Assembly: GCF_026571515.1 (NCBI RefSeq)
Contig: NW_026859523.1
Coordinates: 372,001 to 436,000 of the forward strand
Length of the DNA: 64,000 nucleotides
Direction of reading: 5' to 3'
Origin: Ruditapes philippinarum
Lineage: Eukaryota
The position numbers and the translations under genes were made by a program. Below are positions 27,480 through 63,490 of this stretch, in pieces; position 1 is the stretch's first letter, and each line of letters opens with the position of its first letter. The notes beneath the pieces are model-generated. The model did not search any database. It was not told where the DNA came from and saw only the letters and a list, made by a program, of their open reading frames with translations.

Positions 27480-29902
27480 CTAGAAGGGGGTTTGTTGACG
27501 TGTCTTCAAGTACGCTGCTACCTTTGGTTGTTTTGCAGTTGTTTCAAGACTAGACGCAATACCTGGATATTTATCTTTGGGTACTTTTGTGAGTGCATTG
27601 CAGTTTTCAAGGTAAACATACAATGCTAGATCGGCTACTGTCAGCTAGGAAATGAAATCAAAATGAAATAAAAAAGAAATATTATAATTTGAATATACTC
27701 ACTACGTAAATAATAAATTGAAATCACATCTTCAGTACAAACAATTGAACATGGACTTTCAACTTATATAAATGTATTCAATGGCATTTATTTACACCTA
27801 CTTTATCAATCAAAACTTAAGATTTTTAATATAATTTCTTCAACATTTATTTATCTTTTTTTTTAATTTAAACGATCGTCCTTAAATGTATTTTAATTGA
27901 TATTAATTTCTACATAATGTAGCATGTATCTAATATCTTGCCTGTCATATATTTGATTAATTTTACCACTTTTTCATTTTTTTTATTTAAGAACTCCACA
28001 TACCGAGTCTCCAACAGCAAAACCTTTCTTTCCAGTTTCTGCAACAAGCTTTTCTATATTGCCTAATACCGTAGGTAACGTGTTGGTATCAAACTCTTCA
28101 AACTTCTTTTTCTGTTGAACATAAAAGTATTTTGATAAAATACTGTGGACTTTTCTTTTAGAACATGCAGTTTGTTATATAAAAAGTACTAGGATGAAAT
28201 GTACCTGATGAAATAAAGCCATAATAAAAAAGAGAATTGAATGATTATTTACAAATTATCACTTTGAAATTTATTTATTCAGTTTCAGTTTTTTGATTTT
28301 AACTTTTAAAAACGCCGTGCCGTAAAACTCCAGCCTTCGGGTATTGTGCCTGTTCTTAAACTTATGTTTTATAACGTCTGACACCCTTTCAGAATTTCAT
28401 TTTATTAAGTTCCTTATTCCATTGTTTTCTTGTTCAGTGCGCAAGCATTATTAAACTTGGGGACCATATGTCGCTTTTCATGGAGTGCGACGAACGTGTC
28501 GCATGCTAACCGCCTTATGAGCACCATTGAAGATGTTTCTTAATACCAAATTTTACAATTGTCATGTATAAATTTTGCCGTTTTTTGGCGATCTATAAGG
28601 TTTTTTTCTCATGAAACCCGTACCATTATGATACACATGTAGGGACCATATACTGCGAAAGTAATAACAGGTTTTAAATGGCTTTTATTTTATGAAAATT
28701 CATCACACCTAATAGACCGGAGTGTCATTCTTTATACATGTAGATGAAAAAAAACTTTCCTTTAAGCATGATTGCATTTTTACCTTTTCTTCCTCGCTGT
28801 CCTTGCCAAAAGCTATTGTTACATATGGGGTAAACATGTCTAAAAGTGTGTCCAGTATCTGATCTACCATTACCATCTCTGAGTTCCCTTTCCCGTATAA
28901 TTCTAAAATTCATGATACAAGAGATACTTTATTAAATATGTACAATATTTTTTTAAAGTAAAAAGCACAGTAACGTTACATGCTTAATACATTTTAATGC
29001 AATACATATATTCAATGTTTTGGTTGAAAGCTTAAGTTGAGCGCATGCAAAACACCAATATTTTTCCACGCAATAAAGTTAAAACGAGAAGGATAACATG
29101 AAGCTAATTTACTGTTCATCCCAGATGATTTCTTTTATATAACAGAGGAATAAATCCTGACAAATAAAAATTAATTATGATTTTACATACTGAATTCCCT
29201 TCCTAGATAACGTGCAACTGCAAAACTTTGACATATCCTTTTCTTTCCATCAATTTCAAGCACCGGTAGTGAGCCTTGTGGTGTTCCTGACAAATTAACA
29301 AACGCTGGTAGTGATGATGTATTATGCTTGTTAACTAAGTTATAACAGTGCTTATAATTAGAAAAATAACAATTATGTTTAAAGAAAATTAAAACGTTTA
29401 CGTATACACCTTCATGGACACATGTGACCAGTTTAAAACAAAGAATAATCCCAATATAACCTGCTGAAAGTTTTGAGCCCTTTGCTTCCAGTGCAGAAAG
29501 ATGTCAGTCTTCATCTTCATAAAATCTGATCATGCTTTATAATTTATTATATTTTGATATTGAAATCCCTTAAACATTGAACGGACTGTTCCCAATCAAA
29601 AGCTGGACAAGAGGAGTCCAATATCAGGGTTCTGTTTCCAATATGTTTAACGTCATCTGTATATCTTAGCTTTTATTTATACTGTTCTGGTTATCACTAT
29701 CGCTTAATTCTGTAAATAAATATAAATATATATTAAATAGGTTATTCGTTGTCATACACAACTTACCTGCTTTAAGCTGTGGCCATTGTGAAAATTCAAC
29801 CCGATCGTCCTCGAATTTCACGCCTGCAGCATTGAAGATCATTCTAGACAACTCGGCCCTTCCTCGTCCATTAAAATATGTTAACTTATATTTAGTAGGC
29901 AT
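27480..29902 (-). CDS. GSTS: Sigma-class glutathione S-transferase, copy 4 (207 aa)
   Basis: Exons 29902-29767, 29286-29191, 28902-28784, 28111-28004, 27644-27480 (624 nt, GT-AG, open frame): [60 protein letters not shown]. Confidence 0.96.
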
Positions 29903-30026
29903 GATGTTAATATTTCCAAAGTATCTAAGTAAGAATAATATTTATATATATTTATATATTTTATATAATTTACACTTTTCAAATCTTAATCAAAGTTCAA
30001 CTGTCTAACAAAAATTATATACTGTG

Positions 30027-31906: not shown

Positions 31907-32440
31907 AGGCCCATTATGCCACATAAATGTTTTATTTTTTTCCTCAAAAGCTTTTTTAGTTTTGGTGTACTTTTAGCATGTATGTTTACAAAATTAGAAT
32001 TGGTGATTAAGTGCACATTATTTGATCTGTGTAGTGTAGAACATTCGTAGTGTGATTATTCAGGCCGGTCATTGCCACCTGGTAAAATGTGACATCTTCA
32101 ATAAAAAAAGACGCAGTACAATACGCATCTCACCGTTAGAAAAAATAACAAAATGACGATAAAGGGTAGTGCATGTGTATTTTACATAAGGAATAACAAA
32201 GTTACAAAAATTCAAACACACTTCCACGGCATTCCTCGTTGACGATAGAGCTGGCTCCTTTTATATACATGTCGTTCTTGATAACATGTGACTTGTCCTT
32301 CGACAGCAATGCTCTCTGCAAGTATAGATGTGCAAAACATAGTGTACTTTTTATAATTTTAATGTCGAAGACTCTATCAAAGAAAAATACTCTACTGTGC
32401 CGAAGCAATAATGCATCCTGTCTTCGAAAGGCATAATGCC
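31907..32440. mobile_element. Non-autonomous element with TTAA flanks (Kolobok-like)
   Basis: TTAA|AGGCCCATTATGCC .. GGCATAATGCC|TTAA; a related left end (TTAAGGCCCATTATGC..AAAAGCTTTTT) occurs at ~23853. Confidence 0.5.
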
Positions 32441-33629: not shown

Positions 33630-34110
33630 TTAAAAGATGAGTTTTAAAGCTTTTTAAAAGACGAGATAATTTTACAGTCACGTAGTTCTGAAGGTAATGT
33701 GTTCCAAAGTTTTGGTGCTGCAAATGAAAAACATTTCATCACCGTATGTTATAGTTTTGGAACGTGGAACATTCAGTAAAGCCGGTTCATGCAGAGACCT
33801 TAATTGTCTTTAAAGTATATAAAATGTTAACAAGTTTCTGATGTATTGCTGGGCTTCTCCAATGACGTGAGTTAGGATTTTATAATCTATACCTCGATGT
33901 ATTGGGAGCCAATGAAGTTCTTTGAGCGTGATGCTGACATACCTAGAAGTTTTGGTTATAAGTTTGTTAAGAACTGTCTTTGCAAAGCCATTTAGAAGGG
34001 CATTACAATAGTCCAGTCTCGTTATAATTGAATGATTCACCAATGATTTTGCAGCATCGCCAGTAAGATGTTGTCTTATATATTGCCTAATAATATTCAT
34101 TAAGTTACTA
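33630..34110 (-). mobile_element. Decayed L2/CR1-group LINE ORF2 C-terminal fragment
   Basis: IRQHLT..AAKSLV..ITRLDYCNALLNG..LKELHWLPIHRGIDYKIL, then frameshifted RQLRS..NVPRSKT..YG..FAAPKLWNTLP..LKTHL. Confidence 0.88.
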
Positions 34111-34592
34111 TACATTGCTGAGTACAAAACTAAATTCCATCGGACGAGTACACAACTGTAAAAAGTATAAAGGCGCTAGCCGAGTCCAATAGAAGTATTA
34201 CAGCTGTGTACGAGTCAATATTATACTCAACTATGTAAAATGACCTTTTCATTTCACATCAAAAATGCATAATATGCATTTGATATTAAATTTTGTGAAC
34301 TCGGGAAATTGGAACGAGGCTACATGGAGTCCAATATGCAATTTGGTGTGAACTTTCGGAACATGGAGAATTTTGTTGTTCGTTTTGTTTATATTCGGAC
34401 ACCGGCATTAACCATAATATCGAAACCTGCTGCGTCCTTGCCGGTACGCTGATTGCATCAACATCATGGACGTCTTTTTCATGCCGCTTAACCTAAGTCC
34501 TATTTTCGTTGGTGGCAATGTTGCTCGACAATACTTTAAAGACATCTTTGTTTCAAAACAACGACCCTTTGCAGGACAATATCTTCCCTGAG

Positions 34593-37500
34593 TTAGTCCC
34601 GACAGGTCAGCAAATCATCCCTGAAACTTATATTCGTACGATGATAATTAAGTCTACACGGTGCTTGGGAAAGTTCAATAAAAGGGTAAGTCTGCATATT
34701 ATCCGAGGAAATATAATTATGTAGTTTTATTCTAAGAAGAATGTGTACCAACGTAATGACCCAGGTGGTAATCAATGTCATTGTAACTTTTTATGATTTG
34801 AACTCATATGTTCGAACCCTACCCTACGATGATTATCTTAATAAGACGGTAAAAATATAATATATCCTCAATTGCATTCCTGATATAAGACAGTAAAAAT
34901 GTAATATAACCTCAAAAGCGTTCCTGATGTAAGATTCCATATTGACCAGCTGTATATCTGTATCAGTGAGGTGGTAGACATAACAAACATCATGGTCTAC
35001 TATAACTGCGCTCATACTTCCCTACAAAATAACAAACACTGGTAATACAAGTACAAATGTTGCTGCAAGGCAGCAATTGAGAAGCTCCGCGCAAAAAATG
35101 CGCTCATTACAGATACCTTACCAAATTATTCCTACGCACAGGTCATGTAATATTCAGATTGTTTACTATTGTAGATTTTTTCCGAATGTTTTGTAAACCA
35201 TTTTTTGCCTAAAATTTTATACTTATCTTATGCACTGTCCATAATTGAAAAGAGGGGAAAGATATTTAATATAAAAATGCTTTCACTGACTCCTACCTGG
35301 TAAGGGAAGTAATTCCATTGAATACAAACAAGACTTACAAGACTTGTAAATGTTATGTAACATGACTGTACTGTGTTCTGTTTGTGTCACTACTGTAGTC
35401 AGTAACATAAGATGATAACAATATCAAAGTCTGTTTTTTATTATTATAATTGTAACTAATATACAGATAGTAATAAAAGGACTTATATAATAATATAGTA
35501 ATATTACATGAATATTTTCCATGTCAAATTAAAAAAATGGATTCTTTCAATACTGAAAGTAGAACACACACTGGAATGAAAAAATGGGATAAATTTTAAA
35601 AAGACCAAATTCAGGATTTTTTTGTTTGTACATAGTGATACAATATTCATCAATATAATAAAAGACTGTTACCTGAATTTTAGGCAGGTATGAGGAAATT
35701 CACTAATATCATGTTCGTGCGAGTCAAAGATATAAAAGCTATTTGACATTGGTGATATATATAAAAAAACTATTGTTAATTGATTTATTGGGAGATCAAT
35801 ATACTTTTTTGTTGAATTGCTTTAAAACCATTCATAAAAAACATTACCCCCCCCCCCCCCACATTTTGTGGTTGGGGTATAATTATCAAAAGCAAAATTA
35901 TTAAAGTCTTATTCCTATAATCTTCATTATATTGACAAAATCAATCATTTATAGAATACTTGATATGCTGTGTGTAAATGTAATTCAAAATGAAACAAAT
36001 TATAATTTCATGTACTACTAAAAAAGGGAAATAACAAATTGTTGCGAGTCAAAGATATAAAAGCTATTTGACATTGGTGATATATATAAAAAAACTATTG
36101 TTAATTGATTTATTGGGAGATCAATATACTTTTTTGTTGAATTGCTTTAAAACCATTCATAAAAAACATTACCCCCCCCCCACATTTTGTGGTTGGGGTA
36201 TAATTATCAAAAGCAAAATTATTAAAGTCTTATTCCTATAATCTTCATTATATTGACAAATTCAATCATTTATAGAATACTTGATATGCTGTGTGTAAAT
36301 GTAATTCAAAATGAAACAAATTATAATTTCATGTACTACTAAAAAAGGGAAATAACAAATTTATAACCTAAGTGTCAAACAGAACATTTATAGCCTTCGA
36401 ATTTATGTACAGATGAACTGCTTTCCGGTTCTCATTGATTAATATGACATGCTGCGAATCACTGAAGGGGAAACCAATATAAAAATAGAAAGGAGTTCTT
36501 GAATGCGAATTAGTTTTTAGCTGTAAATCGAAGGGTTTAATTGATCAAATCCGGGCCCATGGACAAAAAAAGTAAACACAAAAAGCTCGCCTGTGGGCGC
36601 GGATCAATAATACCTATCACGGGCTCGTACAAAGTCGGCACGATTCGGCAGTTTCCGTGTGTTTTAACAATATAAGGTTGAACTTTGTCAATTCGTTGCT
36701 TTTAAAGTAAGACTTTCATTTTACAATCGTTATTTGTATATTTTTGCAATAAAATGTACACGGTGGTGGCAATCTTTTGACTTATTTTTAATTTCATCAC
36801 GAAAAATAATTATGCAAGAATATAAGTTATTGATCAAGATTTTTGATAGGTTAAATGACCATCCATAAAGACCTTGTATTCTATAACCATCGCCTAGCGG
36901 CTTCGGTTACATTAGCTTTCGACTGTTTTTACTGGACTATATAGCCTATCAAACTTTTATAATTTATTAGTATATTCTGAAAATGACCGTATGAGGCAGA
37001 ATTCAAACGAGCTTCTTTCTAATTAAGAATAGTACTTCAAGTATGAATAAAAGTCAACAAAAGTCAATTCTACTTGAGACAATGTAACAGGCATTGGTAC
37101 TATAATCTTTTTCTGAATAAACGTTTGTCAAAATACGTGCGATAACGTGAGCTAAAGGGGAAAATGTGTTGCAATATTTCTAAAACAATATTACGGCACC
37201 AGGTTTTAATCAATAGCCGATACAATTCTGCAGCAAAGTCTGATTTTCTTATTTCCAAAGGTTCTTTACCCGCTAAATTTAAGGCACATTTGAACAACCT
37301 ATTATGACGATGACAATCATCATGAATTATTTACCAAAACTATATATAAATAATAACGTTGTTGCAAATTTGATAATTGATATTCAATGTCATAATAAGA
37401 TGATATTGTTCAACAGGTGTTATTGATTAAATCAGTATACAAACGTCCCACAAAGTTTAAAGAAAATGTAATATTTGACCTTAACAGTAAATGTCATGAT

Positions 37501-40500
37501 CAGATCTGAAATATTAAACATGTCTGTGTTGTTTTGTCCAAATATCAATCAAATTGTTTACTCAGCAATCCTAAGTAAGATATCCTCATATGCTATCTAT
37601 ATTCTAAGTTTAATATTAACAATATCTCATTTCTAACCTAGTTTAAGAATCAGTGGCTCTTCACATAAGCATGGTTTATAACAACTGTAATTTCAATATT
37701 CCACACCTAAATCCAGCTATGAACCGAACACCTATGTTCTTTATAGTGACCTTCATTTAGCCCCTCCCCTCCCCCCTCCGACAGCAATACCGAACGAGGT
37801 CACCGTATGAAAATGCTATACCAAGTTTTGTTAAAATCCCCTTTCTTTACTAGAATCTATATTGACAGGAAACCATTTTTTTATTTTTAGTTACAGCGAC
37901 CTTGATCTCCTACAGAGCCTTAAAGTAATTCTAAATGGGATATTCACATACTCTTGCTATTGTGATGACTATATATCACTCTAGCTATCGACCTGAAACA
38001 ATTTTTATATTTCAAGTTTGTTTCTTTGTTTCATTTTACGCCTTTTTCCAACAGTATTCCAGTCATATAGGCGGGTAGTTTCCTAACCATCGTTCCTGGA
38101 GAGTTACACCAGTACTAAACAACCTTCCTCCGCGCTAAACTACCAAAGCATCTCCCGGGGATCGAACCCACGCCAGAGAAGTAACTGGAGTAGAAGTCAT
38201 CGACTCTAACCCCTCAACCACGGAGGCGGTTTATATTTCAAGTCATATCGATCTTGGTCATAGAGGACTTAAAAGTGATCTCAAACAAGATATCTGCATA
38301 AGCTCACAAAATATTAAGCCTGCTCAAAATATCTCATTCCTACCTGAAGTTATCGGCCAGAAATCATTTTTTTCTATTTAGAGTAACAGTGACCATGATC
38401 TTCATTATATGTATCCAAAAGAAAGACAAAGCGAGGTCTAGTCAGAAGACCAAGGTGTCCCAAAATAATACCAATCAAAGAATATCTCTACATTCCAAGT
38501 CTGGTTATAATATGTCATTCCTAAATATCGTTATCGACCGAAATCCTACTGTTTATCGTCCTTCCGCTTGAACGCGCGCGGTCGTCCACGCAACATGAAT
38601 TGCAAAGAAAGATCATACACACAAGTTTGCCAGACTTTCCGTTCACACGTTTTCTCCCTTGATCAAAACACAAAGAAAGATAATAAACCGGTCTTTCCGT
38701 CCACAAGTTTCCTCCCTTGACCATAATTTTAATCTGTGCCTGATATTCCCTTCATTCTGATAGGAATGTCACCCATGCCAGCTTTCACAGAAGTAGTATT
38801 ATATATGACTAGCTTCACGTACGCATAATAATAGGGATCACTAAGCATATAATAAATCTCACTTGATGCAAAGATACTGATGGATAAGGTGAACAAAACA
38901 TTACAAAAGTAAAACTTACATTTGATGATTTATCATAAATGACAGTTGGTCCATATGTTGAGGGCGTTGTTGCGCGTCTAGCATGCTGACTTGTTGCCGA
39001 GGCTGGAGCTTCCGCAGTTGTTGTTACTTTAACCCGTGTTGGTGATGACGTCATTTGGTTTAATAACGTCGTACTTTGTGTTTCTTTATTCTCTGTTGTA
39101 TGGTAAGCATTTGACGTGGATACTTTATCTGACGGTGCTGTAGTTCTAGCGCTATTTAATTCTGGAAACTACAAATAAATGTATTACATAAATAAAGAAA
39201 ATACAAATTGTTTAAAGTCGACCATCGGTAGACCTACACATAATCATATAGAAAAGAAAGACACGTGACGTGATGTTTGACGTTATTAAATTGAAATTGG
39301 GGGGAAATAGTAATTGTAAGTTGTCGGTCAAAAATAGATGAATTCGCTTTATTTTTATAGAATATGTTACGGTCTAACAGTGTTATGTTTATGAGATCAA
39401 GATTATTTAAAATTTTGAATAGAACATAGCGCTACTACAGTTATTAATACTGATGTGAAAAGAAAGGCTAAATTAGTTAGCTTGATATACCTTATTTGAA
39501 GCAGTTGTTAATTGTTGGTGCAGGGTCGTCGATTCGTTGTTTTTCCTTAGAAGCAGAATTAATTCCTTGCTGTTACACCAGTGTAGAATTTGCCGGGACG
39601 CTATCGGGTCAGATCTCAATACTCTCACTTCCGGTAGAAATCCGATCCATTCTTTCATCATTTTAAGCTATTGTATAGAATATAAACAAAAAGATGCATT
39701 GTTTCATAAAATAATCTAAATACAATAATTATATCTGAAATAGGAGGCAAACAGAGAAGAAAATGATTACTTGAAATAAAGAGGAAATACATGAATCTGA
39801 TGACGATCGAGTATTTTATACCCTGTAATTTTTGATAGATGATTATAATATTATATTTTTTGCTATTGTGATTACATTATCGAGTTACGTAAACAAAAAC
39901 GTGATCAGTAACCGAGTGCATTAGTACCATCTGTTATGTTAATTATCTCTATTACATTAATATCAATTAATTCAATCTCGGGATAATTATTTCGTTAACG
40001 GAAAGAACAAGCCAGTAAAAAGCAACACAAAGCTGTTTCATATGGTGGCTGATATGTGCCATGTCGATCTTTTGCTTCGCGGAGCGCCATACAAAGACAT
40101 AAAAATACAACAAACGACTACCTTGTCGCATTTTCGTGTTTCACCTCGCGCCCCGCAGAGTGGCCTTATTGTCGTTATTTTTCGTGATTTGTCTGGCACC
40201 CCTGCGGAGCGAAAGAACGACAAAGTAGTATCCTCGTCATAATTTCGTCAGGCGCATTGCGGATCGAAAAATGAAAGATCAGAATAATTACAAAGCGATC
40301 ACTTTGTAGTATTTTCGTGTTTTCGTTTAGCGCCCCGCGGAGGGAAGGTACGACAAAATGATGAGCTTGTTGTATTTTCGTGTTTTTTTCTAGCGCACTG
40401 CGCAATGTTAATACGACATAGCACAACCTGAACTTATACGTGTGTCTGAAAACCGGAGTACAAGGAAGGAATGGTATCAAAGCCTTTACCTCGATATCGG

Positions 40501-40591
40501 CAATCCCATTGGTTGTGTGAACCTCGTCCATTTCGTGTTTGTTAAGCGGGACTAGAATACAGGTTAGTCTGTTACTACCGACGAATATACC
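34593..40591 (-). CDS. Uncharacterised protein with two 2-Cys repeat modules (BRICHOS-reminiscent) flanking a Thr/Ser-rich mucin-like linker; 5' exons not identified; possibly a pseudogene
   Basis: Phase-0 GT-AG exons 40591-40490 (GIFVGSNRLTCILVPLNKHEMDEVHTTNGIADIE), 39667-39491 (LKMMKEWIG..ILHWCNSKELILL..), 39168-38920 (T/S-rich ..YGPTVIYDKSSN), 35021-34911 (GSMSAVIVDHDVCYVYHLTD..AFE), ~34731-34593 (IKLHNYIS..APCRL..*). The last junction is 1 nt out of frame. Confidence 0.68.
35718..36361 (+). repeat. Near-perfect tandem duplication, ~320 bp x2 (intronic)
   Basis: 35718-36040 vs 36043-36361; differences seen are poly-C length (14 vs 10) and about one base. Confidence 0.95.
38018..38229 (-). 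mobile_element. tRNA-derived SINE (second family), inserted in a decayed satellite-like repeat
   Basis: Minus strand CCGTGGTTGAGGGGTTAGAG (A box), GGGTTCGATCCCC (B box), GGCGTAAAATGAAACAAAGAAACAAA tail; 14-bp TSD TTTATATTTCAAGT (38004-38017, 38230-38243). Confidence 0.85.
40059..40420 (+). mobile_element. Decayed relative of the GC-rich MITE at 22387
   Basis: Starts TATGGTGGCTGATATGTGCCAT; repeated TTTTCGTGTTTT and CGCCCCGC modules. Confidence 0.65.
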
Positions 40592-43496
40592 CTAGTGTTA
40601 GAATAGAAGATCATGGTCACTACTTCTAAATCACAAACTAGAGATGATATTTTCACTAAACATGATTCATGATTGTATTTGGCACTCTTTAAAAGAGTTA
40701 TGTAAACAGACTGATTTTAGCGCGACTATTCATAATTGTACTCAGTCCGGCCTTGATCACTCATTCTCGTGTGTTATTTTACAAGACCATTTACGAGGCT
40801 TTTAAAATGTGCGTTCATTAATATCAATGTATTGTACTTAATATATATAGAGTGGATATTTGTCTTGCTTATATGCTGTATTAATTTAAACCATTCATCA
40901 ATTTCTCATAAAATTTCTTTGTCAAACAGAAATGTTCAACATTAACGAGCCTATCATTTACGGGACTTTGCCTCTTTCACCTTCTCCTGTGATTTATTCT
41001 GCTTGTTTTGGTAAATTATTTTAACTTGTAAATGGACCTGGTTTTATTGTTATTGTATTATTTCATGAAAACAAAGAAGTATCCGTGTTTTAAACATATT
41101 TATATGAAATATGTTTATCACTTGCAAACAGCTTCTAAAAATCATACTTTTGGTAGTGTAATTCGTATTTAGACGTTTTGATTTTTATAGAGTTCAATAT
41201 GGATATTTACTTTCATGAACGAATACATTTATCTTATCTTGCAATCACAAAAACGAAGTAAACATGAAAAGAGACAGGTCCCGTATCTGGCTGAACTGAC
41301 CCCAAATGTTGATATAATTAAATGATAGAAAGGTTATTCTAAGAGACCAAATGAAATCGCCATACTAAATGCACAAATTTAAGGACCATGGTCTCGAAAA
41401 TGAATAAAATTAATGTTATTTCTGGGTTCTAGTAAACCTATCATACGGAAAAATAAAGGACATCAGTACTAGTAATATTTTACATTTAAGATGTCGGAAA
41501 ACTATACAAAAAGTGTTTATTTTTCAGTTCTAATATTTATGAAATGTCGTGGTTTAACTGAGAATGAGTGTGGTGCCGGCAACGTCGTCACACTGATTAT
41601 TTCTTTTTCATGCAAGTTGGTATCTTTAAAACTACTGAAGGGAATGGGCTGAAAAATTACACACTTATTTAAGAGCATAATAGGAGGTCACTAACATGGA
41701 CCTTGACATAATTATTGCACTTTTTTACCTTAGAAAAGTCCATGTTGTCCAGGCACTTGTTTAACTATCATGCTTTGAAAAAAAACGAGCTCGACAAACC
41801 TTAAAATGATTCCAAACGTCTCTTAGTAAATGTTCCAATGTCATCAAATTACAATCGGTTTCTTTACCCATAGATTATAACGTTTAATGATGTAATAAAA
41901 AATAAATTATCATCGATTGGTTATCTCTACTCTTATTTCAATTACTTTTGCAATTGCTTGAAATAATTGCAGAAATTAATTTAATACGCACAGTTTCTCC
42001 TTCGAAGTAAAACATAAACCGGTCACTTCCTGAAACTTGCACGTGACCAAACCCCGCCAACCATAGAGTCAAGAGTACCTATTAATTAAAAAATAAGCCA
42101 TCTGAGCATTAAGTATGTATGATAAACTAGTTTTATTTAACCATTTAACTGCTAAATGTATGTAATTGATTTGTTCAGCTTTGAGTCTTACAAAAGTTCA
42201 AATTCAGCAAGTAAATGTTTAAAGATGACCAGCATGGTCAAATTGTACTGAGATGATAATGACAGTCTTAAACATGTATATATAAGACTTTATTATAGTT
42301 TTTAGAACTACAACATTTCTATAAAAAAGAATGGACTTTATGGCAGACTAAAGCATGAAATTCAATGGCCAACACTGTTTGCATGTTACCTTCTTAATAC
42401 AACACAATAGCTTCAACCTGATTTAACAATGATACCTTGACGAACGCTAATAGACACACACACGTACATATGAGCCAATTTATCACAGAATGACATATGA
42501 AAGTCAATAGCAATGAGAAAATACAAAGAGAAAAATTTTAAAAACAAAACACTTTTTGTTATAATCAACTTAAAGATGCGTGATCAAGTAAAAAAAATGC
42601 GCGTGATGTTATTCAGAAAACAAAGTTGAAAGGAAAGTATTGAAATAAAATCATACGTAATATGTCCCCATGGTTTGGTTATCTCACAATTTTACATGTT
42701 GTTTTAATTCATAGTTTGATTTTGTCTGCGGTCTAATTTCTCCCAGTCTTATCTGTGTCGCTTCTTACATTAAAGCTGTTGTCTCATAGCCAAGGTGAAA
42801 TACTTCAACATTGTACTTTTAATCACATGACATCACTTGTTTCCCTTTGAAATATAACCATATCGCATTTCTTTTTATATTACACCTTATAAAATGAAAC
42901 CAAACAAATTGACTACCAGCTTTGGCACCATGTGACCTCCCAATATGTTATGGGATCAAATAGTATCAATAAAGTCAAGTATATATATTGCCAGTCGAAA
43001 ATCACTATTATACTGTACCTTACCTAGTTATCATTTTCAAAGTCCAAAAAAAAAAAAATCATATCAGATTAAAATTGCACTCGAATTAACTATGTCAATT
43101 GTTATCTGTCAAAATGTCCAAAAAATAGATTTGCAATTAAGAGTTCATTATACGTAATTGAGTAGAATACTGATCATATTGGACTATTGCACTCGGCTAG
43201 CACCTCGTTGATATAGATTTGATATAGGGTTCAGTATTCTATACAACTATGTTATAATTTATTTAACTGTATAATAACCTCATTGTATTCAAAAAATGTT
43301 ATAAAGCTCACAAAAGGCCCGCTTGATAATATTTTCTTGAAGTCGTTTGATAACATTTTATGTAATATGGCAACTTATGCGAGATCCTATGTGTATGTCA
43401 CTCAGTGTTAAAATGGGACATAGGTAAGGTTTTGAACAGCGAACACTTCAATTGATAAATATGTTACACCCTGAGCTTATACATTTGTTCAAGTGA

Positions 43497-44277: not shown

Positions 44278-44698
44278 CCTCAGTAAAATACATGAATACG
44301 TTTATACCCTCAGTAAAATAATTAATACGTTTATATTATCAATGTAATACAATAGTACGTTTATACCCTCAGTAAAATACAATTGTTATATTATACCCCC
44401 AGTTAACACATTAATACGTTTATACCCTCAGTAAAATACATGAATATGTTAATACCCTCAGTAAAATACATGAATATGTTAATACCCTCAGTAAAATACA
44501 TGAATATGTTAATACCCTCAGTAAAATACATGAATACGTTTATGCCCTCGGTTTAATACACTGATACATTTATACCCTCAGTAAAATGCATTGGTACTTT
44601 TATACCACAGTAAACACATTAATACGTTTATACCGTCAGTAAAATACATCAATAACCTTATGCCCTCTATAAAATTTATGCCGTCAGTAAAATGCATT
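44278..44698 (+). repeat. ~30-bp minisatellite (TACCCTCAGTAAAATACATGAATACGTTTA), ~14 units
   Basis: Direct tandem units without unique spacers. Confidence 0.92.
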
Positions 44699-44704
44699 TA
44701 CATG

Positions 44705-45658: not shown

Positions 45659-48524
45659 ATGACTTATTTCACATTATTCACGTGTTTATGGATATTGAAA
45701 GTGTCAATAATTTGTAAGATAACGCTACTTTTATTCACTAAATATTGCTTAACATATAAAAATGAATTTTACAGAAACTGAATATTGAAATGAAAAGCCT
45801 TTTCTTTGGAAAGCAAGGTAAAACTACACACGGGAATTAAAATTTAAATAAAGATTATGATTATTATCTTTATTTCCTCCATAACTGAGGAGCTTTAACA
45901 AAATATTGATTATAATATGCATATTAAAATTGTACTAAGAATCATATGTACAGTAAATATAAATACAAGATTTATATGTATAATATAAATGAGAAAAGAG
46001 AAGGCATATTGTACAAACATTCAAATATTTACTCATACTGAAAGATAACTAATGCAATTAATCCGTGATATCTATCAACAATTAGTTTAAACATAGTTTA
46101 TTTCGAACAAATTCACAATATATATACAGACAATAATGTACACAATACAAACATAATATGCTGAAAAAGGATTGGGTCCGAAAGCTGAGCTTATAAAGGC
46201 CTTCTCCTTATAGATTTACAATGCATAAAATACGGTATGACAGTATATGTGACTTGCTTGAAATATATCTGATTTTACATTTTTTTTTAAGAAGTTAAAG
46301 TCAAAATTGTTTCTAACATTTAGTTATAATGTAAAGCAAATATTAATACAAAAAAATGAATGAGAATACAAGACTGCATCATTTGTTATATAAAATTAAA
46401 GAGAAATAACGTAAATTAAGATAGAAAGAAATGAAGTAAGAAACTTTCAGCAAAATAGAAAAGAAGAAGAAATAAATTAAATGTGGATCATTCGGATAGT
46501 TCGGCGATTTAGATGGGAAGTATTTATTGATTTGAGCTGATGTGAATATGCTTAAGAGAATCTCCTGCTTTCTCGGATGTATGTATGAACGGCTTCAAAC
46601 AGTCTTCTGTTTGCATCATCACTAATGTTTGGGTCTCCATTTAATAACTTTTGGAGAGTTGCTGAACAAATAGTAGATATAGTGTTAAGAAAAGAGGCCC
46701 TGCTGTCAGCATAGCGATGACATCTATCAACAATTGTCAATTGATAAGAAAAAAAATGAATTAATGAAAATATATACATACATAATGATATACAGTTGTT
46801 AAGAGTCGCCTTAGGAAACTCATACGTGCATCTCTCTACACAAAACGTTTTATATTATTAATTATGTATGTAGTAGAAAATGCAACGCATACAGAAGTAA
46901 TAAATAAGCCATTGCTTTGAGAAACACAATGTGATATATAGAGCATTATACACAATAACTAAACGGTTTCTTTTTTGAATTTCATTGATCTGCAGTAAAC
47001 TTTGAAGATAAGAACTTTGAATTTTAAAATAAAAAATACAACCTATGTTGTATGCATATATATATTTTACAGTCTGCGATGATCCTGACCCATGTGAGCT
47101 GAGGGACGCCGGGCTATTATCCCATCCTAAAGAATGTCAGTTATATTACAATTGTTCGCTGCCAGTGAGAAGATTCAAACCATGGTTAGGGAAACATGTA
47201 ATGGAGTGTACATACCCAGACGTTTTTGACGAGAAAACTTTACAATGCGGAGATTTTCTAAATGTACAATGCAATTCAAGAGAAACATATGACCACGCGT
47301 GTAAGTATTTCATCTTCTTCAGACATTTGCATATTTTTATTATAAGATGTACCAGACAGACTCGTAAAAGTCGGCATATTTCGTCACTTTCCGTTAGTTC
47401 TAACTAAATTAGAATTGAAAGCGCTAAATAATTCAAAGTCAGTGAAAACTTAACACTCATTGCTCAGTACTGGTTAACTACAGGAACAGATTTGAGAGTG
47501 TGTCTATTATCTTATAGATTTCTATAACTTCTTTTACCAATTCATGTTTAAATGTTGAATTCTGCTTAAGTTTGTGCTAGGTGGCGTGGACGGTAGTTTG
47601 CACTTTACAGTACCGTCCATGGACAGGCTCAATCAAACCGAGCCTGCAAAATTTTCAATTTTGCCGTGTTGGGCTTTCTTTAGGGATTCTTATTTCACTC
47701 TATTTTAAGTAATTTCTGTATGAACTAACTAAATATAAAACAGTATTTATTACAATGACAATATGCAATACACAGCATCTATATTTAAATAAATAATGAT
47801 TTGGCAAATAATGTTTTAAAGTCACCGTCAGTATCGGAAAACTTTAAGTTGTTTTATCATAAACTGATATCATGATTAATTTCCGGCAGACAACAGTGCG
47901 CATTGCTACTCTTTTAAAAGTCATGTAAATGTTAAAAACGGAAAGTTACGCGGTTTGTCAACGTCGGATACCCACAACCGAACCACATGTTATGTTATAT
48001 GTTAATCAACCGTGGGTATCCGACGATGGCGGTTTGTCGACTATACAATCCCTGAATCGGTGAAATACTTTAAATTTCTAATGACCGTCAATAGCTGAAC
48101 ACCATGGCTTTAAAGTAGCAGCGTATGCATTTTCGAACCACCGAAATAGAGTTTAAACCTACGGATTAAAAAAGAAGAAGCACAATTTCAACTATAGATT
48201 AATTTCAGTTCCGACATGTTCAAAACAGTTCTTGAAAATTTGAAGAAAAAGTAAAGTAAGACATATTAAAGAATGTATCATATTGCATTAATATTTTATT
48301 ATTAACAAATAACATCATTTTATACAATCAAAATGGTGACTTATTTTGTTTCAGGCGAATATCGCAATAACATGTGCTGGCCAAAGTCAAACTGTAAGCG
48401 ATGCATTAGTGACTTCTCATGTAATCCAGAAACCGGAAGTGGTCATCAGTGTCACTTTGTGATATCTGATCCCTTAATGCTAAGAATATGCCCGTTACTT
48501 CGTAAAAATGCATGTTCATTATAA
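45659..48524 (+). CDS. Small, probably secreted chitin-binding type-2 (CBM14/peritrophin-A-like) Cys-rich protein, ~150 aa
   Basis: Phase-compatible exons 45659-45713 (MTYFTLFTCLWILKVSII, signal-like), 47073-47300 (C..G..SHPKECQLYYNC..MECTYPDVFDEKTLQC..VQC, 6-Cys CBM14 spacing), 48355-48524 (CEYRNNMC..NCKRC..FSC..*). The middle exon is well supported; the first and last are less certain. Confidence 0.72.
46084..46721 (-). mobile_element. 5'-truncated CR1-type LINE (ORF2 end plus 3' UTR) in intron 1 of the chitin-binding gene
   Basis: CHRYADSR..LLNGDPNISDDANRRLFEAVHTYIRESRRFS*; 3' end AAATAAACTATGTTTAAACT; 14-bp TSD ATCTATCAACAATT (46070-46083, 46722-46735). Confidence 0.85.
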
Positions 48525-50321: not shown

Positions 50322-53300
50322 CAGAAGAACAGAACAGAATATTTAATTGGCATTAAATACAAACAATATTATAGCCATACAAATATAAACATGTATACAA
50401 ACTTTACCAGAAGAACAAAAGTTTAACAATTTAGATTTAACAAACATTTTTAAGTCTAGTTTCTTAATGGTATCATTGTCTTTCTCTGAAAGCCAAATAT
50501 AAAAATCGACCTAATTTGTAAATTGATCTTATAGAATCTGTTGACATTAAAGTAGTGAACTTTTGAATAGATGGCCATCTGCAAAAATACGGGGTGAAAG
50601 TTTTGATTCGTAACTGTCTGTATTTAGGACAAACAAGTAAAAAATGATAAGGATCTTCAATCATATTCATATTACATTGAGTACAGTATCGTTGTTGTCG
50701 GTCAGTATTGTTATATCGTCCAGTTTCAATGGCTAAATTATTTGTATATAATCTAAACTTTGTAATTGTAGTTTTATATTTAGTGTCCATGTTTAACTGC
50801 AGGTACTTCTCTGTTTCAAATTCGTGTTTGAATAAACAATAGTGCGATAACCTATTAGAATTGTTAATTGTAGTATACCACGATTGCTTAAAGATATCTT
50901 ATATTCGCTGCTTAATAATAACATAACTGATATCATTGGAATTCTGAGAAAGCCACAAATTTCCTAATCCTATTTTTTTCAAGCAAAATTTTAATATGAT
51001 GTGCCCAATTAAGACCGTTGTATGAGTTTCCATTGTTTGCGTCGTTTTTCAACATTTCGTATATATTTATAATTAATGGGTTGTTTGATTTCAAAACTTG
51101 TATCCAATATTTGATAATTATCAATTGCCGTGCTGTTTTCATGGGATATCGCCTACAAGCCGTATAGATTTGTCGATCGTTTTACACATAACAATTTTCG
51201 AAGGAATTTACAATGTATTTGTTCAATGTGGTTGCCATCATGATACCCCCAGACTGATGCATTATAATTTAATATAGAACCTACTAAACTGTCGAACAGA
51301 CGAAATTTTTCTTTCAAAGGTAATTCAATTTGATAAAAAACTATAAATAGGTTATGGAGCGCAAATGATGAATGTTTTGATATTCTAATTTGTGTTCTAT
51401 ACCACGATCCATTTTTGAAGAGATGCGTTCCTAAATACTTAAATGATGGGACTACTTCTAGCTGTGTATTATTAAGAAATATATTACACTGAGTATGTCG
51501 ACCACGTTCAAATACCATAACTTTGGTTTTGTTCGTATTGATTGTTAGTCCCCACGTACGACAGTACCGGTTAAGGTCATTTAGCATAGACTGCATTGTT
51601 TCGGGTGAGTGCGCAAATAATGCCGCGTCATCAGCGAACATCAAGAGGAAAAACTTAAGTTCATTTATTGTAAATATTCCTTCTAAATTAGTATCAATAT
51701 TTTGTAATATATCATTAACGAACAGTAGAAACATCAGGCTTGAGCTCGGGTCTCCCTGTTTCAATCCTATAAACGAGTTGAAAAATTCCAACATTTTACC
51801 ATTATATCTAACACATTGTTTAACGATATTATACATTGACTCTAGAGCTGTAACAAATTTTGAACTAACTTGATAACTTTTTCCGTAAGAAATTTCTATC
51901 TATACGATCAAAACATTTTTCGAAGTCTATAAAGACACTATAAAGTTTTTGCTTAGAATTTAAGGTTTTTGCAATAATAGAGTGAAATAAAAATATACAA
52001 TCAGTAGTGGATTTTCCTTTTTCGAACCCTTTATTGGTTGTTTAATATTAAAGTTTTTTCCTGTGTCCAACTTGTAAGTCTATTCATCAAAACTTGCGAG
52101 TATATTTTAGCCATCACATTAATGAGAGTTACTCCCCTATAATTTTTTGGGTCCTCAATATTACCTCCCTTGAATATTGGTGAAATGATACCCTCTCCCC
52201 ATGTTGTTGGATATTCTCCAGTACAAAATAAACGATTAAATAATTTAAGTGTGAATGGAGATGTTACTTCAAACGAATGTTTATATATTTCAGCAATAAT
52301 TTCATCAAGGCCTGCACTTTTGTTATTATTTTGAGAAAACGTAGCATTTTTTAGTTCATCATAAGTTATCTCTTTGTCTAGAAACTGGTCGGAATTATTT
52401 GCATTTACGTTTTCATTTAGCAAGTTATTTTGATTTGAGCCAAATAGTTCTTTAAAATGACTATAAAGGTCGTCTACAGATAAACTTTGTGCTTTACTAT
52501 TGGGTTTTTTATATTGTCGTTTAACATTCGACCAAAATTTCTTTGGATTATTTCTTGCCATCTCCGAAATTTTATGTTTTTGCAAACTTTGAAACTTTCT
52601 CTTTTCCGTCTTTTTGACCTTACAATAATTAATTTTGGCTGATAGAAAAGACATTTTGTTTTCATTCGTTTTACGTTTAAGATAGTTATTCCTCGCGTTA
52701 TTAAAAGATTTAAGTGCATTATAGCATACGTTATTAAACCAATCTTGCTTCTTTTGAAATGAATTGTTTTTTACTATTCTCTTTTTACTAAAAACATCTT
52801 TTGTAGAAGTATGAATTAATGTTATAAAATTTGATGAAACAATATTAACATTATTTTCTAAGTTCTCTACACTTGATTCTAATTGTCTAATGGCATTCTC
52901 ATCTTGATTCAATCTCAATTTAAAATCTTCAATTTTAGACGCGTCCCACTTTATATATGTGTTTTCTATCGACTCATTTTGTAAAATTTTGTCTATCTTT
53001 TTGTAAGATTTGAAATGAAATACTACAGTGATCGGAAAACTCTGTCATAACATTGACTTGAAAGTTATTAACAATATGAAAATTTTCACTCTTGAGTAAC
53101 AAATAATCGACTGTACTTGATCCATTGTGCGAATGGAATGTAAAGTCCCCGTGAATATCGTTATGTAAGCGACCGTTACAAATGCGAAGACTAGTTGTTT
53201 TACACATATCGAGCAGACGACGTCCATATGCATCTATCACGTGGTCAACATTTTCACGGTCTACTAAATGTATGTCTAAGTCTGTCCGATCAATTTGATT

Positions 53301-53518
53301 AAGTAAATAATTATCAGTTTCCAAAACATCAGATAATGTTGAGGTTCTTGCATTTAAATCGCCTAGCAAAAATATTTTACCAAGGGAGTTATATGTCTCA
53401 ATATCAGACTCTAATTGATCAAACATATCAATATCAAAAAAAACTTAGCAAAGGAGAACAACTAGGTAGAACATAAGTATTACATAACAAAATATCTTCA
53501 TCAAAATTAAAAAGATAC
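50322..53518 (-). mobile_element. 5'-truncated, disabled non-LTR retrotransposon (APE endonuclease + RT; probably RTE-X clade)
   Basis: ORF pieces 53426-52974 (GDLNAR, TVDY, SDHC endonuclease motifs), 52918-52031 (KSAGLD..PIFKGG..NYRGVTL), 51836-51153 (GLKQGD, FADD, YLG), 51142-50933, 50790-50473 (IETGRY..C..C..EDPYHFLLVC). Several frameshifts; 3' AATTAAA then (TTCTG)n tail. Confidence 0.95.
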
Positions 53519-60200: not shown

Positions 60201-63200
60201 CTTAGACTGTCACAAACTTGTATACAAAAATGTTTTATAATTGTCAGGTTGAAGTGCTAGAGAGGTTGTTTGAAGAGAACCATTATCCTGATACCTTTCG
60301 ACAAGAACAGCTTGCCCTTGACCTTGGTATAACACTTGACAGAATTTCTGTAAGTAATTTAGTAGTTAATGTTTGTTTAATAAAGTCCATGAAACTAAAC
60401 TAAACTAAAGTGATCGATCAGTCAGCCGGCAAACATTTAACGGACCAAAGCCGAAGACTAAGGTCCAGTCACTAAATTCTAAGAGGTTCAACGTACCATT
60501 TCGTATATTATACCACACTTTACTAGAACATATGGCAGAAGTTCAATGGTGAAGGGAATAAAAAAAATTTTTTTTTGATAAGAATTTCTAGTAAAATATA
60601 CTGAAAATTGCTGATAAAAATATTTTTCTCGGTTACACACCGCTAAATTTTAGCGGTCCTGTGCCTGAATAGGCGGTCACTGTACGTTTTAGTCGGAACG
60701 ATAACGTCATCGTAAATACTATATTATTAAGAGGCCCCGACACGTATACAAAAAATAAAGAAGCATATATAATTTGTAAATTATATTTCGAAAACAAAAT
60801 GCAGATATTTGTGTCTTTATGTATGAAAATACATACAAAATCATGTATAGGTTATAGTTTACATATTATAATTATATACAAAGAAAGAGGAAGCGTTAGC
60901 TTTCAAACTATCGTATCATTTGTTGCTTCTCTTTCAGACACCAGTAACGTTATGATACCACCTTCTCTTATTTGTCCTTTAACGTTACGAATAATTGATC
61001 TGTTACTGTTATCAAGGAATTCTATTATATGAACTTAAACCTATACTTATCGGTCAAAATGATTGTGTATAGACTTTCTTTCAAAGTTTTCCCTAGATCA
61101 CTTGTCTATGTGATTTGTTTTGTTAAAGGGTATATGAAATATTTTTTCAAAGTTTATCAGAAGTAAAATTATATATTGTTTCCATAATTCTATGATCCAT
61201 TCTTTAAGTTGTAACATAAGATAATTCCGTTAGTTAGCACACATGAATATTGTACGTGCACAGAATAAAATCTTCCAGAACAAAGTAATATTTGTCTTTT
61301 TTAAGTATTTTTTTTTCTGTGTAGCAATAATTGCTCGCGTGCGCCATTCATTTTACGACTATTTACTGGCCATTTTTACAGGCACTTTGTAAGTTTTTTG
61401 AGCAGATATATAGCTTAATACTCTTTATTTAGATTGCTTACAGTCATTTTATTTCATGCTTTCCAGTGTTTTACTGTAATATATCAGGTGATTATATTCG
61501 AATAAACCACTAGTGGAATTTATAAAATATAATTTTCACTGTAGTCGGACAATGTCTGGATGCGGATGAAAATAATATCATTACTAAATGGAATAACAGC
61601 AAAATAAATGCCGTCATATGAAATTTTGCTTCTTTCGAAAAGAAAGTCGATATCATCATACATCATGTTAAAATGTAAAAAAATAGAGGAATTTCACAAA
61701 ACTATATTTCAAAATTGATGATGTGACGTCATGATGTGATGACGTCATATAGAGTTTGCTCGGCGCGTTACGTGGCAAAATCAGTAAAATATACTTAAAA
61801 TCACTTAAAACATGAAATAAAAAGAAAATTTATTTGTTTTACATATAAGATTGAAATATATTTCATTTGTGAACACCTGCTATTCTATTTTCATTTGTTG
61901 CAACGCCAGTCGTAGTGTTCACTTAGTGAAATATATTTCAATCTTACATGCAAAACAAACACATATCTATGAGAAGTACAGATTTGTTCACTTCCCGATA
62001 CGTTGTAAATATCTACTAGTAAAAATTTGTTCAACTTCACACATCTCAACTTCGCCACATTATAATAGAGTTATATAATCTTTAAATGTATTGGATTGAC
62101 CTCCACAACAACTTAGTTGACCTCTTAAAAACAACCAAATGAGTTGATTTATCAATCATATTGACATTTATTTGATACATATTAGTCAATGAAAATGAAG
62201 AACGAATTGTAATGAATTTAGATATTATCAAAATTACGTATCAGGATAGTGATTTCGACCTATAGATGGTCATCACCATTCAACAACAGTACAACAAACC
62301 TTTCTTTTGTATTACAGATTTGGTTCCAGAATAGAAGGTCAAAGTTCAAACGACAGCGTCAAGCAGATCACATGGCCTGGATGCGCAAACAAATCTTCCA
62401 GAGTAAGGACGATCATAATAATGGCATTATGTTCGGAACGCCAAAACTTCCGGCATTGTCGTCTGCTTGTCACGTGTTGAGTCCTATAGAGACACGAATT
62501 CCAAGGGATGATTCTACAGCAGATTTAAATTCTGTGTAAGTAACATAGAGCAAGTATTGGATTCATTTGTTTCTACAGTTCAACCAATAGAGATGGAAAC
62601 AAAAAAATCGTCTTGTTTCAAATGAATAATGTTTGCATTAGAAAATTGAATACAGTACAGTTCTCGTATTTCTATTGGTTGGCTGCATTTTTAGATGTTC
62701 TTCACTATTGTTTTTGTATATTATTTACACAAAATGAGCTTATCTAAACTACTTTAAAATCATCTACGTTGTACTTCTTACTTTTCAAGCTGTAAACTGA
62801 TGATATAATTTGCCATTATTTGCATATAAGAAGAATTATAGCCGTTTCTATCACTATGTGCGCAAGCCACCCCAAAGACGTACAAAGCATATAATGTCTT
62901 TTTATAGGGAATGTTATTATAGGTATTTATTATATTATTTCAGATCTTCAAGTCCTTGCATGTTGAACAATATTTCAAGACCATTGCCACACGAAAATAT
63001 CTTTAATTACAATCACGATCAGACGACAACATGCCGTTATGAGACAAACATGACATCTGCTCCAGCGTTCTTCTTAACGCCTACACGAACAGGTCTAGAA
63101 TATGACTATACGAGTTCACCTAACACTATGTTACAGCACACACATGTACCAGTCTTTGACATGTTTCATTTTGTGTCATCAAATAGTTCACCAGCTTACG

Positions 63201-63490
63201 TTCCCAGCATGCACGCTGTCGCTCAAAATCACGTTACAAGATCTCGTTTGGACGAGAATGAACTAAACAAATGTGCAGTTAACGAGCAGCAGCCACAGAT
63301 GTCGTCAGAAGTCCACACAAACTTTAACAGCAAGAAGTGTCCAAGTTTACAAAGAGCTGATAATTCTTTTGGAGAAAATTCGAGATCCATTATAAACGCA
63401 AGTGAACGAGATGTGATATGGTTAGATACGGACTCGGGCAGCAGCCCAACCAAGGACACGACTCTTGATTGTTTAGCCCATTGGTGTTAA
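57256..63490 (+). CDS. Divergent PRD-class (paired-like, Q50) homeobox transcription factor, ~311 aa
   Basis: Exons 57256-57324, 60248-60349, 62318-62535, 62944-63490 (936 nt, GT-AG, phases 0/0/2, open frame). Homeodomain [12 protein letters not shown]|[34 protein letters not shown]|[14 protein letters not shown]; an intron between residues 46 and 47 is typical of the PRD class. An AG acceptor just before the ATG suggests an upstream exon. Confidence 0.92.
58293..58722 (+). repeat. 21-bp minisatellite (ATGTTATGCTATTATCGATCC), ~20 units, in homeobox intron 1
   Basis: Direct tandem units; they generate the spurious repetitive (VMLLSIH)n ORFs. Confidence 0.93.

Follow-up and report, generated by a model that had tools for sequence, protein, structure and literature searches.

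A probable cargo-free tandem BRICHOS variant on a mucin-like stalk in the clam Ruditapes philippinarum

BRICHOS precursors are classically laid out as a hydrophobic segment, a linker, the BRICHOS domain, a convertase site and a mature peptide (PMC9714404, PMC2751770). We have analysed a stretch of 64,000 nucleotides from Ruditapes philippinarum, further called the window (NCBI RefSeq assembly GCF_026571515.1, contig NW_026859523.1, positions 372,001 to 436,000), and describe a gene on its minus strand for a protein with two small two-cysteine modules, separated by a Thr/Ser-rich stalk. The protein is a variant with the BRICHOS fold, as predicted by modelling for each module, and not a classical precursor: it has no conserved convertase site and no beta-prone mature peptide, which in proSP-C is the N-terminal cargo. 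What is particular here is a conserved hetero-tandem on a mucin-like stalk.

The described systems closest to this protein each share part of its layout. Precursors with more than one BRICHOS domain make up 1% of the precursors and contain up to 19 domains, and they carry matching amyloid-prone regions in repeats that are 48–97% identical (PMC9627735), whereas the clam chain holds no cargo and its two modules are 20–27% identical, with the stalk between them. The gastrokines (GKN1-3) are likewise BRICHOS proteins of the signal-peptide type, but they keep a C-terminal region past the domain (PMC2751770, Table 5), whereas the clam protein lacks such a region and carries a further domain on its mucin-like tether. 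GKN1 inhibits curli and biofilm, and curli is an example of its outside clients (PMC12919244). The polychaete precursors of the antimicrobial peptides arenicin, alvinellacin and nicomicin (PMC9756803) are also lophotrochozoan secretory precursors with BRICHOS; however, a C-terminal Cys-rich cationic beta-hairpin tail is missing from the clam chain, of which the mature form is near neutral (isoelectric point about 6.3). Also close are mollusc proteins of 110–140 amino acids such as XP_060580564.1 and KAL4229251.1, which share the module, the exon junctions and the lack of cargo, but have a single module, often a His-rich N-terminal arm, and no long stalk. All database records found for them are uncharacterised or hypothetical. 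In the literature covered, which did not include subscription journals, we found no description of a mollusc family of BRICHOS proteins without cargo; in one mussel table a 'BRICHOS domain-containing protein' is entered with no further specification (PMC4203926). Neither was a description of such a tandem found, and Fig. S10 of PMC9627735, on multi-BRICHOS architectures, may bear on this.

Gene structure and the encoded protein

RNA was examined from six of the 24 available runs, four as contigs (X1, X3, X4 and X6) and two as raw reads (X21 and X23). The contigs give a minus-strand chain of seven coding exons, from 42671 to 32202, that encodes 284 amino acids, and their joints cover all six introns. 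Five GT-AG joints were seen in X1 (42657/42078, 41992/40591, 40490/39667, 39491/39168 and 38920/35021), the last three of them also in X3. The junction 38920/35021 is visible as a matching loose end in all four contig runs, and the joint from 34911 to 32315 in three (X1, X3 and X6). Neither of the two raw-read runs, in which cover of the gene was very low, contained any of its joints.

Coding exon 1 (42657–42671) contains the start codon and four further codons up to a GT donor, joined to exon 2 in X1; a genomic in-frame stop lies five codons upstream of the start, in a region beyond the reach of the RNA contig. Exon 2 (41992–42078; X1 joints on both sides, AG/GT, phase 0) encodes the hydrophobic, likely signal-peptide core together with the strand that opens module 1 and includes Glu31. 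Exons 3 and 4, both with AG/GT borders and with RNA and model support, complete this module: exon 3 (40490–40591; 34 amino acids, phase 0-0) contributes two strands, Cys45 and the first helices, and exon 4 (39491–39667; phase 0) the second half with Cys99 and the last strand, followed by the start of the stalk. The remaining stalk and the first strand of module 2, with Asp206, are encoded by exon 5 (38920–39168; AG/GT, phase 0, RNA). Exon 6 (34911–35021; 37 amino acids, phase 0-0, RNA) holds two strands, the helices and Cys223, which is at position 13 of the exon. The true last exon, exon 7 (32202–32315), encodes the second half of module 2 with Cys276, the last strand and the stop. It is followed by a short 3' untranslated region (32162–32201) ending at a likely poly(A) site, indicated by an 11-base untemplated run at 32162 in X6, 40 bases past the stop.

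A preliminary description of this locus, made from the sequence alone, had proposed five exons with matching phase-0 junctions apart from the last, and its seven quoted peptide motifs were all located on the minus strand of the window. Its first four exons (40591–40490, 39667–39491, 39168–38920 and 35021–34911) stand as phase-0 AG/GT exons that are joined in the RNA contigs. The fifth (34730–34593) was rejected: it is intronic and lies mostly within a dispersed repeat (about 34616–34825), with 32 of 39 non-self DNA matches of 74–82% identity covering it and its translation matching 32 other places. It has no in-frame acceptor; the nearest AG is one base out and needs a phase-2 donor, which exon 6 does not offer, and RNA joints to it were found in none of the four contig runs. 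On a module-2 profile built from three other clams it scored -0.3 bits, compared to 23.9 bits (E 2e-9) for exon 7 (32315–32205), to which both the tail of the RefSeq protein and that of a Mercenaria relative (P0002) map. The two were not told apart by a profile made from 24 modules, single or first ones and one wrongly cut: exon 6 plus 34730–34593 gave 16.9 bits and exon 6 plus the true exon 15.6, and neither last exon alone beat shuffled sequences (862 and 234 of 1000 as high). The idea that the rejected segment is a decayed ancestral exon also failed, as none of the eight repeat copies checked adjoins a family module.

One X4 contig is spliced up to exon 6 and then runs unspliced from 34911 to 34116, without cover of exon 7. 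This form would lose the last cysteine and end in an encoded hydrophobic tail of 25 residues (best 19-residue hydropathy 1.38). It is possibly an alternative last-exon form, though no more likely so than a merge in the assembly, since depth is given as one figure per contig and cover of the intron is low in the other three runs. In the same last intron an open reading frame (33810–34175, minus strand) resembles by eye what we take to be a decayed reverse-transcriptase tail of a long interspersed nuclear element (LINE), and has no Pfam match. The intron between exons 5 and 6 contains by eye a tandem duplication of about 330 bases (about 35720–36360), which is polymorphic or an assembly artefact, because the X3 contig skips 336 bases there.

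The gene is annotated yet undescribed. A search with exon 4 gave a single protein, 100% identical, XP_060603968.1 (258 amino acids, uncharacterised LOC132756842 of R. philippinarum), which already covers residues 27–284, so the gene is not hidden or unannotated as had been supposed. This RefSeq protein starts at an internal methionine and lacks the first 26 residues including a hydrophobic stretch, and the RNA joints thus correct a model from which the signal peptide was absent. The two most 5' exons, provided by X1, and the true last exon had been missed in the preliminary description. The hydrophobic segment encoded by these RNA-supported exons 1 and 2 (best 11-residue hydropathy window 1.96) is likely a signal peptide, with predicted cleavage after about residue 22, and module 1 begins directly after it. 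Judged from the sequence, the protein is likely secreted. This agrees with the earlier view of an extracellular-type tandem-module protein of molluscs.

Both modules were modelled with a predicted local distance difference test score (pLDDT) of about 90; the stalk is disordered and the predicted template-modelling score of the whole chain is 0.42. In the model each module runs through three strands, the strand with the first cysteine, two helices, a strand, the helix with the second cysteine and a last strand. All four cysteines of the protein are within the modules (Cys45/Cys99 and Cys223/Cys276), the first of each pair on a strand and the second at the end of the second-half helix, and one disulfide per module is predicted. 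The Thr/Ser-rich stalk (38959–39538, minus strand, about residues 112–197, one intron inside) is predicted to be disordered, and the separator described earlier proved real, with 89 residues, 37% Ser+Thr and pLDDT below 50 nearly throughout. In four two-module proteins the stalks measure 68–140 amino acids with 35–49% Ser+Thr, while the modules are fixed in length; the stalk is thus conserved in composition and not in length or sequence, and it is likely O-glycosylated. In all six module-2 proteins the chain ends eight residues after the last cysteine. No cargo peptide was found in the chain and no conserved basic convertase site among the relatives compared, and with so short an end a reading as a classical precursor that carries amyloid-prone or antimicrobial cargo of its own is not upheld.

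Relationship of the modules to BRICHOS and to each other

Several lines of evidence indicate that the modules are very probably homologous to BRICHOS, a link that the preliminary description had drawn by eye. When the model of module 2 was compared with 48,161 solved chains, the BRICHOS domain of proSP-C (2yad) ranked first (Z 6.5, root-mean-square deviation 3.1, 73 of 77 residues aligned) and a second BRICHOS entry, 8ox2, ranked second (Z 5.3). The same proSP-C entry was first for a single-module Mactra relative that is 43% identical to module 1 (Z 6.6, root-mean-square deviation 3.3, 68 aligned). By the language-model features of the Atlas, the gastrokine/BRICHOS cluster (0.91) is the nearest named cluster to paralogue P0008, with 197 of 256 features in common; the ten best family-bearing matches of this paralogue all share a family or clan, and its structure matches there are ITM2 and SP-C (TM 0.53–0.57).

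The arrangement of introns agrees with this. The best PF04089 locus in the genome (G000:C3026:50936-59280; exon E 2.5e-5) is a canonical BRICHOS gene, presumably ITM2-like, with three domain exons as inferred from DNA only. Phase-0 introns interrupt its domain at the two positions at which they also interrupt the modules described here, and its cysteine exon has 111 nucleotides, phase 0-0 and the cysteine at codon 13, exactly as exon 6. A profile of 29 family modules gave 7.9 bits against this canonical domain, over its first half only, and none of 2000 shuffles scored as high. The modules further resemble BRICHOS (proSP-C 2yad, 8ox2, PF04089) in the predicted sheet with two helices, in the cysteines on a strand and on the second helix, in the N-terminal hydrophobic segment of the protein, and in an acidic residue 14–17 positions before the first cysteine, compared to 16 in ITM2A (PMC2751770). 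They differ in being shorter, with the two cysteines 53–54 positions apart versus 59 in ITM2A, and in scoring below the Pfam cut-off, in the Glu that replaces Asp in module 1, in the presence of two domains and in the lack of a mature peptide and of a conserved convertase site.

A number of results weigh against the relationship. Z values below 8 can mean a common arrangement. With Foldseek there was no match at E 0.001 and 2yad ranked 12th and 21st. The rows for the two-module model place 2yad on module 2 only, and three profile searches of the PDB sequences returned no BRICHOS. PF04089 (gathering cut-off 25 bits) gave no match for this protein, for the RefSeq protein or for the single exons. 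Among 33 family proteins two matched PF04089, neither of them reaching the cut-off (E 0.011 and 0.18), the better with 16.4 bits over positions 4–90 of the hidden Markov model, and in other family members E-values of this order are also attained by unrelated families. The site of the conserved Asp at the end of strand 2, which is 97% conserved in BRICHOS with Glu rare but known (PMC9627735), is Glu31 in module 1 and Asp206 in module 2; in 29 other modules it is Asp in 14, Glu in 12 and Ile in three. The proposed link is backed by the fold, the language-model features, the shared introns and a weak full-length Pfam match in a relative.

The claim that the protein contains two homologous two-Cys modules, each cut at the same exon junctions, was borne out by profile-profile comparison (E 1.1e-4, with a probability of only 29%), in which both cysteines are aligned. 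Pairwise comparison of the modules within this protein was not significant (27 of 500 shuffles as high), and in three relatives 0, 0 and 1 of 500 shuffles were as high; the identity of 20–27% given above is over aligned positions in these four proteins.

A search of 1.84 billion representatives gave ten matches, comprising the query, eight named clam proteins and one unnamed. Proteins with two modules and a stalk were found in Mactra (P0003 and P0011) and Mya (P0007), so that the same module-stalk-module layout occurs across three clam genera, and the Mercenaria protein P0002 is a piece with the stalk and module 2. This genome contains at least 26 further module exons (4 + 22 matches), at least 28 in all; the 26 are a minimum, but alleles or pseudogenes may be among them. 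The further genes are mostly single-module, of 110–140 amino acids and with the same exon junctions. Single-module paralogues occur in clusters on G000:C23, C3196, C8244, C9740, C9920, C13916, C14092 and others, many of them with His-rich N-terminal arms. In the Atlas there are unnamed, mostly Mollusca clusters of 62, 96 and 118 members.

In a tree of 30 modules, module 1 falls together with one subfamily of single-module proteins (99/97) and module 2 stands in a long-branched group of its own, which suggests that modules 1 and 2 are not sisters; fragments and near-duplicates (P0004, P0010, P0015-P0017 and P0032-P0035) were left out of this tree and long branches meet at the split between modules 1 and 2. 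Because module 1 is placed with a single-module subfamily and module 2 apart from it, the sequences suggest that the tandem is old or a fusion.

Possible function

Our preferred reading, held tentatively and at somewhat less than even confidence, is that of a secreted protein with two BRICHOS-fold heads on a flexible tether that carries no cargo and would act extracellularly as a two-handed holdase for other, aggregation-prone proteins. Since cargo in cis is absent, a chaperone could work only in trans. If the modules are BRICHOS homologues, holdase activity in trans is by analogy an evenly balanced prospect. The steps beyond gene structure and predicted fold are inferred from analogy. The protein would be secreted and form one disulfide per module, and O-glycosylation would make the stalk an extended tether. 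The sheet face of each head might then bind exposed beta-strand-prone segments of other proteins, the clients being the own secretions of the animal or a bacterial amyloid, as with gastrokine-1. The tether could add avidity and hold the protein within a layer of mucus or matrix; the preferred clients of the two diverged heads may differ.

The activity of the BRICHOS domain of Bri2 depends on its state, with dimers suppressing fibrils best, and BRICHOS is pursued as an anti-amyloid agent whose activity hinges on the assembly state (PMC5727130). A stronger version of the holdase reading, which we regard as unlikely, would make the protein a natural covalently tethered hetero-dimer of cargo-free BRICHOS chaperones on a mucin stalk, preassembled in the manner of the dimers with which human Bri2 blocks fibrils best. 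With its expanded family of single-domain relatives it would form a mucosal anti-amyloid and anti-biofilm system of filter-feeding molluscs. A cargo-free domain of about 85 residues with a natural two-domain version would be a comparative system for the action of the fold in trans, and the same system would probe the need for the conserved Asp. It would also give a name and a testable function to a large unannotated mollusc family that Pfam misses.

Alternatively, the modules may derive from BRICHOS but now serve for adhesion, for ligand binding or as structural units in a secretion such as mucus or shell matrix, with the stalk as a spacer and no chaperoning taking place. We consider this possible, although on the doubtful side. 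The family is large and fast-diverging, with 22 + 4 further exon matches in the genome and with module 2 only 21–31 of 83 residues identical between clam superfamilies (the Mercenaria pair excepted); the conserved Asp is often replaced, and the His-rich arms of many paralogues would suit metal or surface binding. Nothing direct contradicts it, but the complete modules that were aligned all retain the two cysteines and the pattern of strands, and the shell-proteome papers that were found make no mention of BRICHOS, though they may include unnamed members. According to another view, the protein is a proprotein in which a protease cuts the stalk and sets free the two modules as separate domains, or else a peptide from the stalk, and the tandem serves co-expression only. 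The basic pairs of this chain, one Arg-Arg late in the stalk and one Arg-Lys following module 1, and the predominance of single-module family members would fit such cleavage. However, no dibasic or RxxR site was found in Mactra P0003, and in P0007 and P0011 such sites occur only inside module 1; moreover in the stalk, unlike in a cargo peptide, composition is conserved and neither length nor sequence is, and we consider release by cleavage improbable. Convergence, in which a small two-Cys alpha/beta fold has come to resemble BRICHOS, could account for the modest Z values, the absence of a Foldseek or PDB-sequence match, the Pfam scores below the cut-off and a DUF1488 protein that reaches Z 5.0 in the fold search with the Mactra single module, but the rank of the fold, the language-model features, the shared positions and phases of the introns and the score of the family profile on the canonical clam domain point alike to BRICHOS, which makes it very improbable.

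Neighbouring features of the window

About 2.2 kb downstream of the gene two glutathione S-transferase exons are present on the minus strand (29183–29941; GST_N E 0.01 and 0.0015). Upstream of the gene, on the opposite strand, an exon with a chitin-binding peritrophin-A domain was found (47033–47407, plus strand; CBM_14 E 2.2e-7), and further on a frameshifted LINE with endonuclease and reverse-transcriptase domains (50473–53444, minus strand). The end of a homeobox gene with a long 3' open reading frame is located at 62222–63490 on the plus strand (Homeodomain E 0.00094). At the other side of the window two open reading frames (317–643 and 9095–9382, minus strand), which have no Pfam match, resemble each other in an exon-like core, and this points to a possible gene duplication. 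Short repeats of very high copy number, with about two thousand-fold read depth in X21, are found at 38016–38230 and about 47470–47690. Upstream of the start codon of the two-module gene, a minisatellite with units of about 40 bases was recognized by eye at about 44280–44700.

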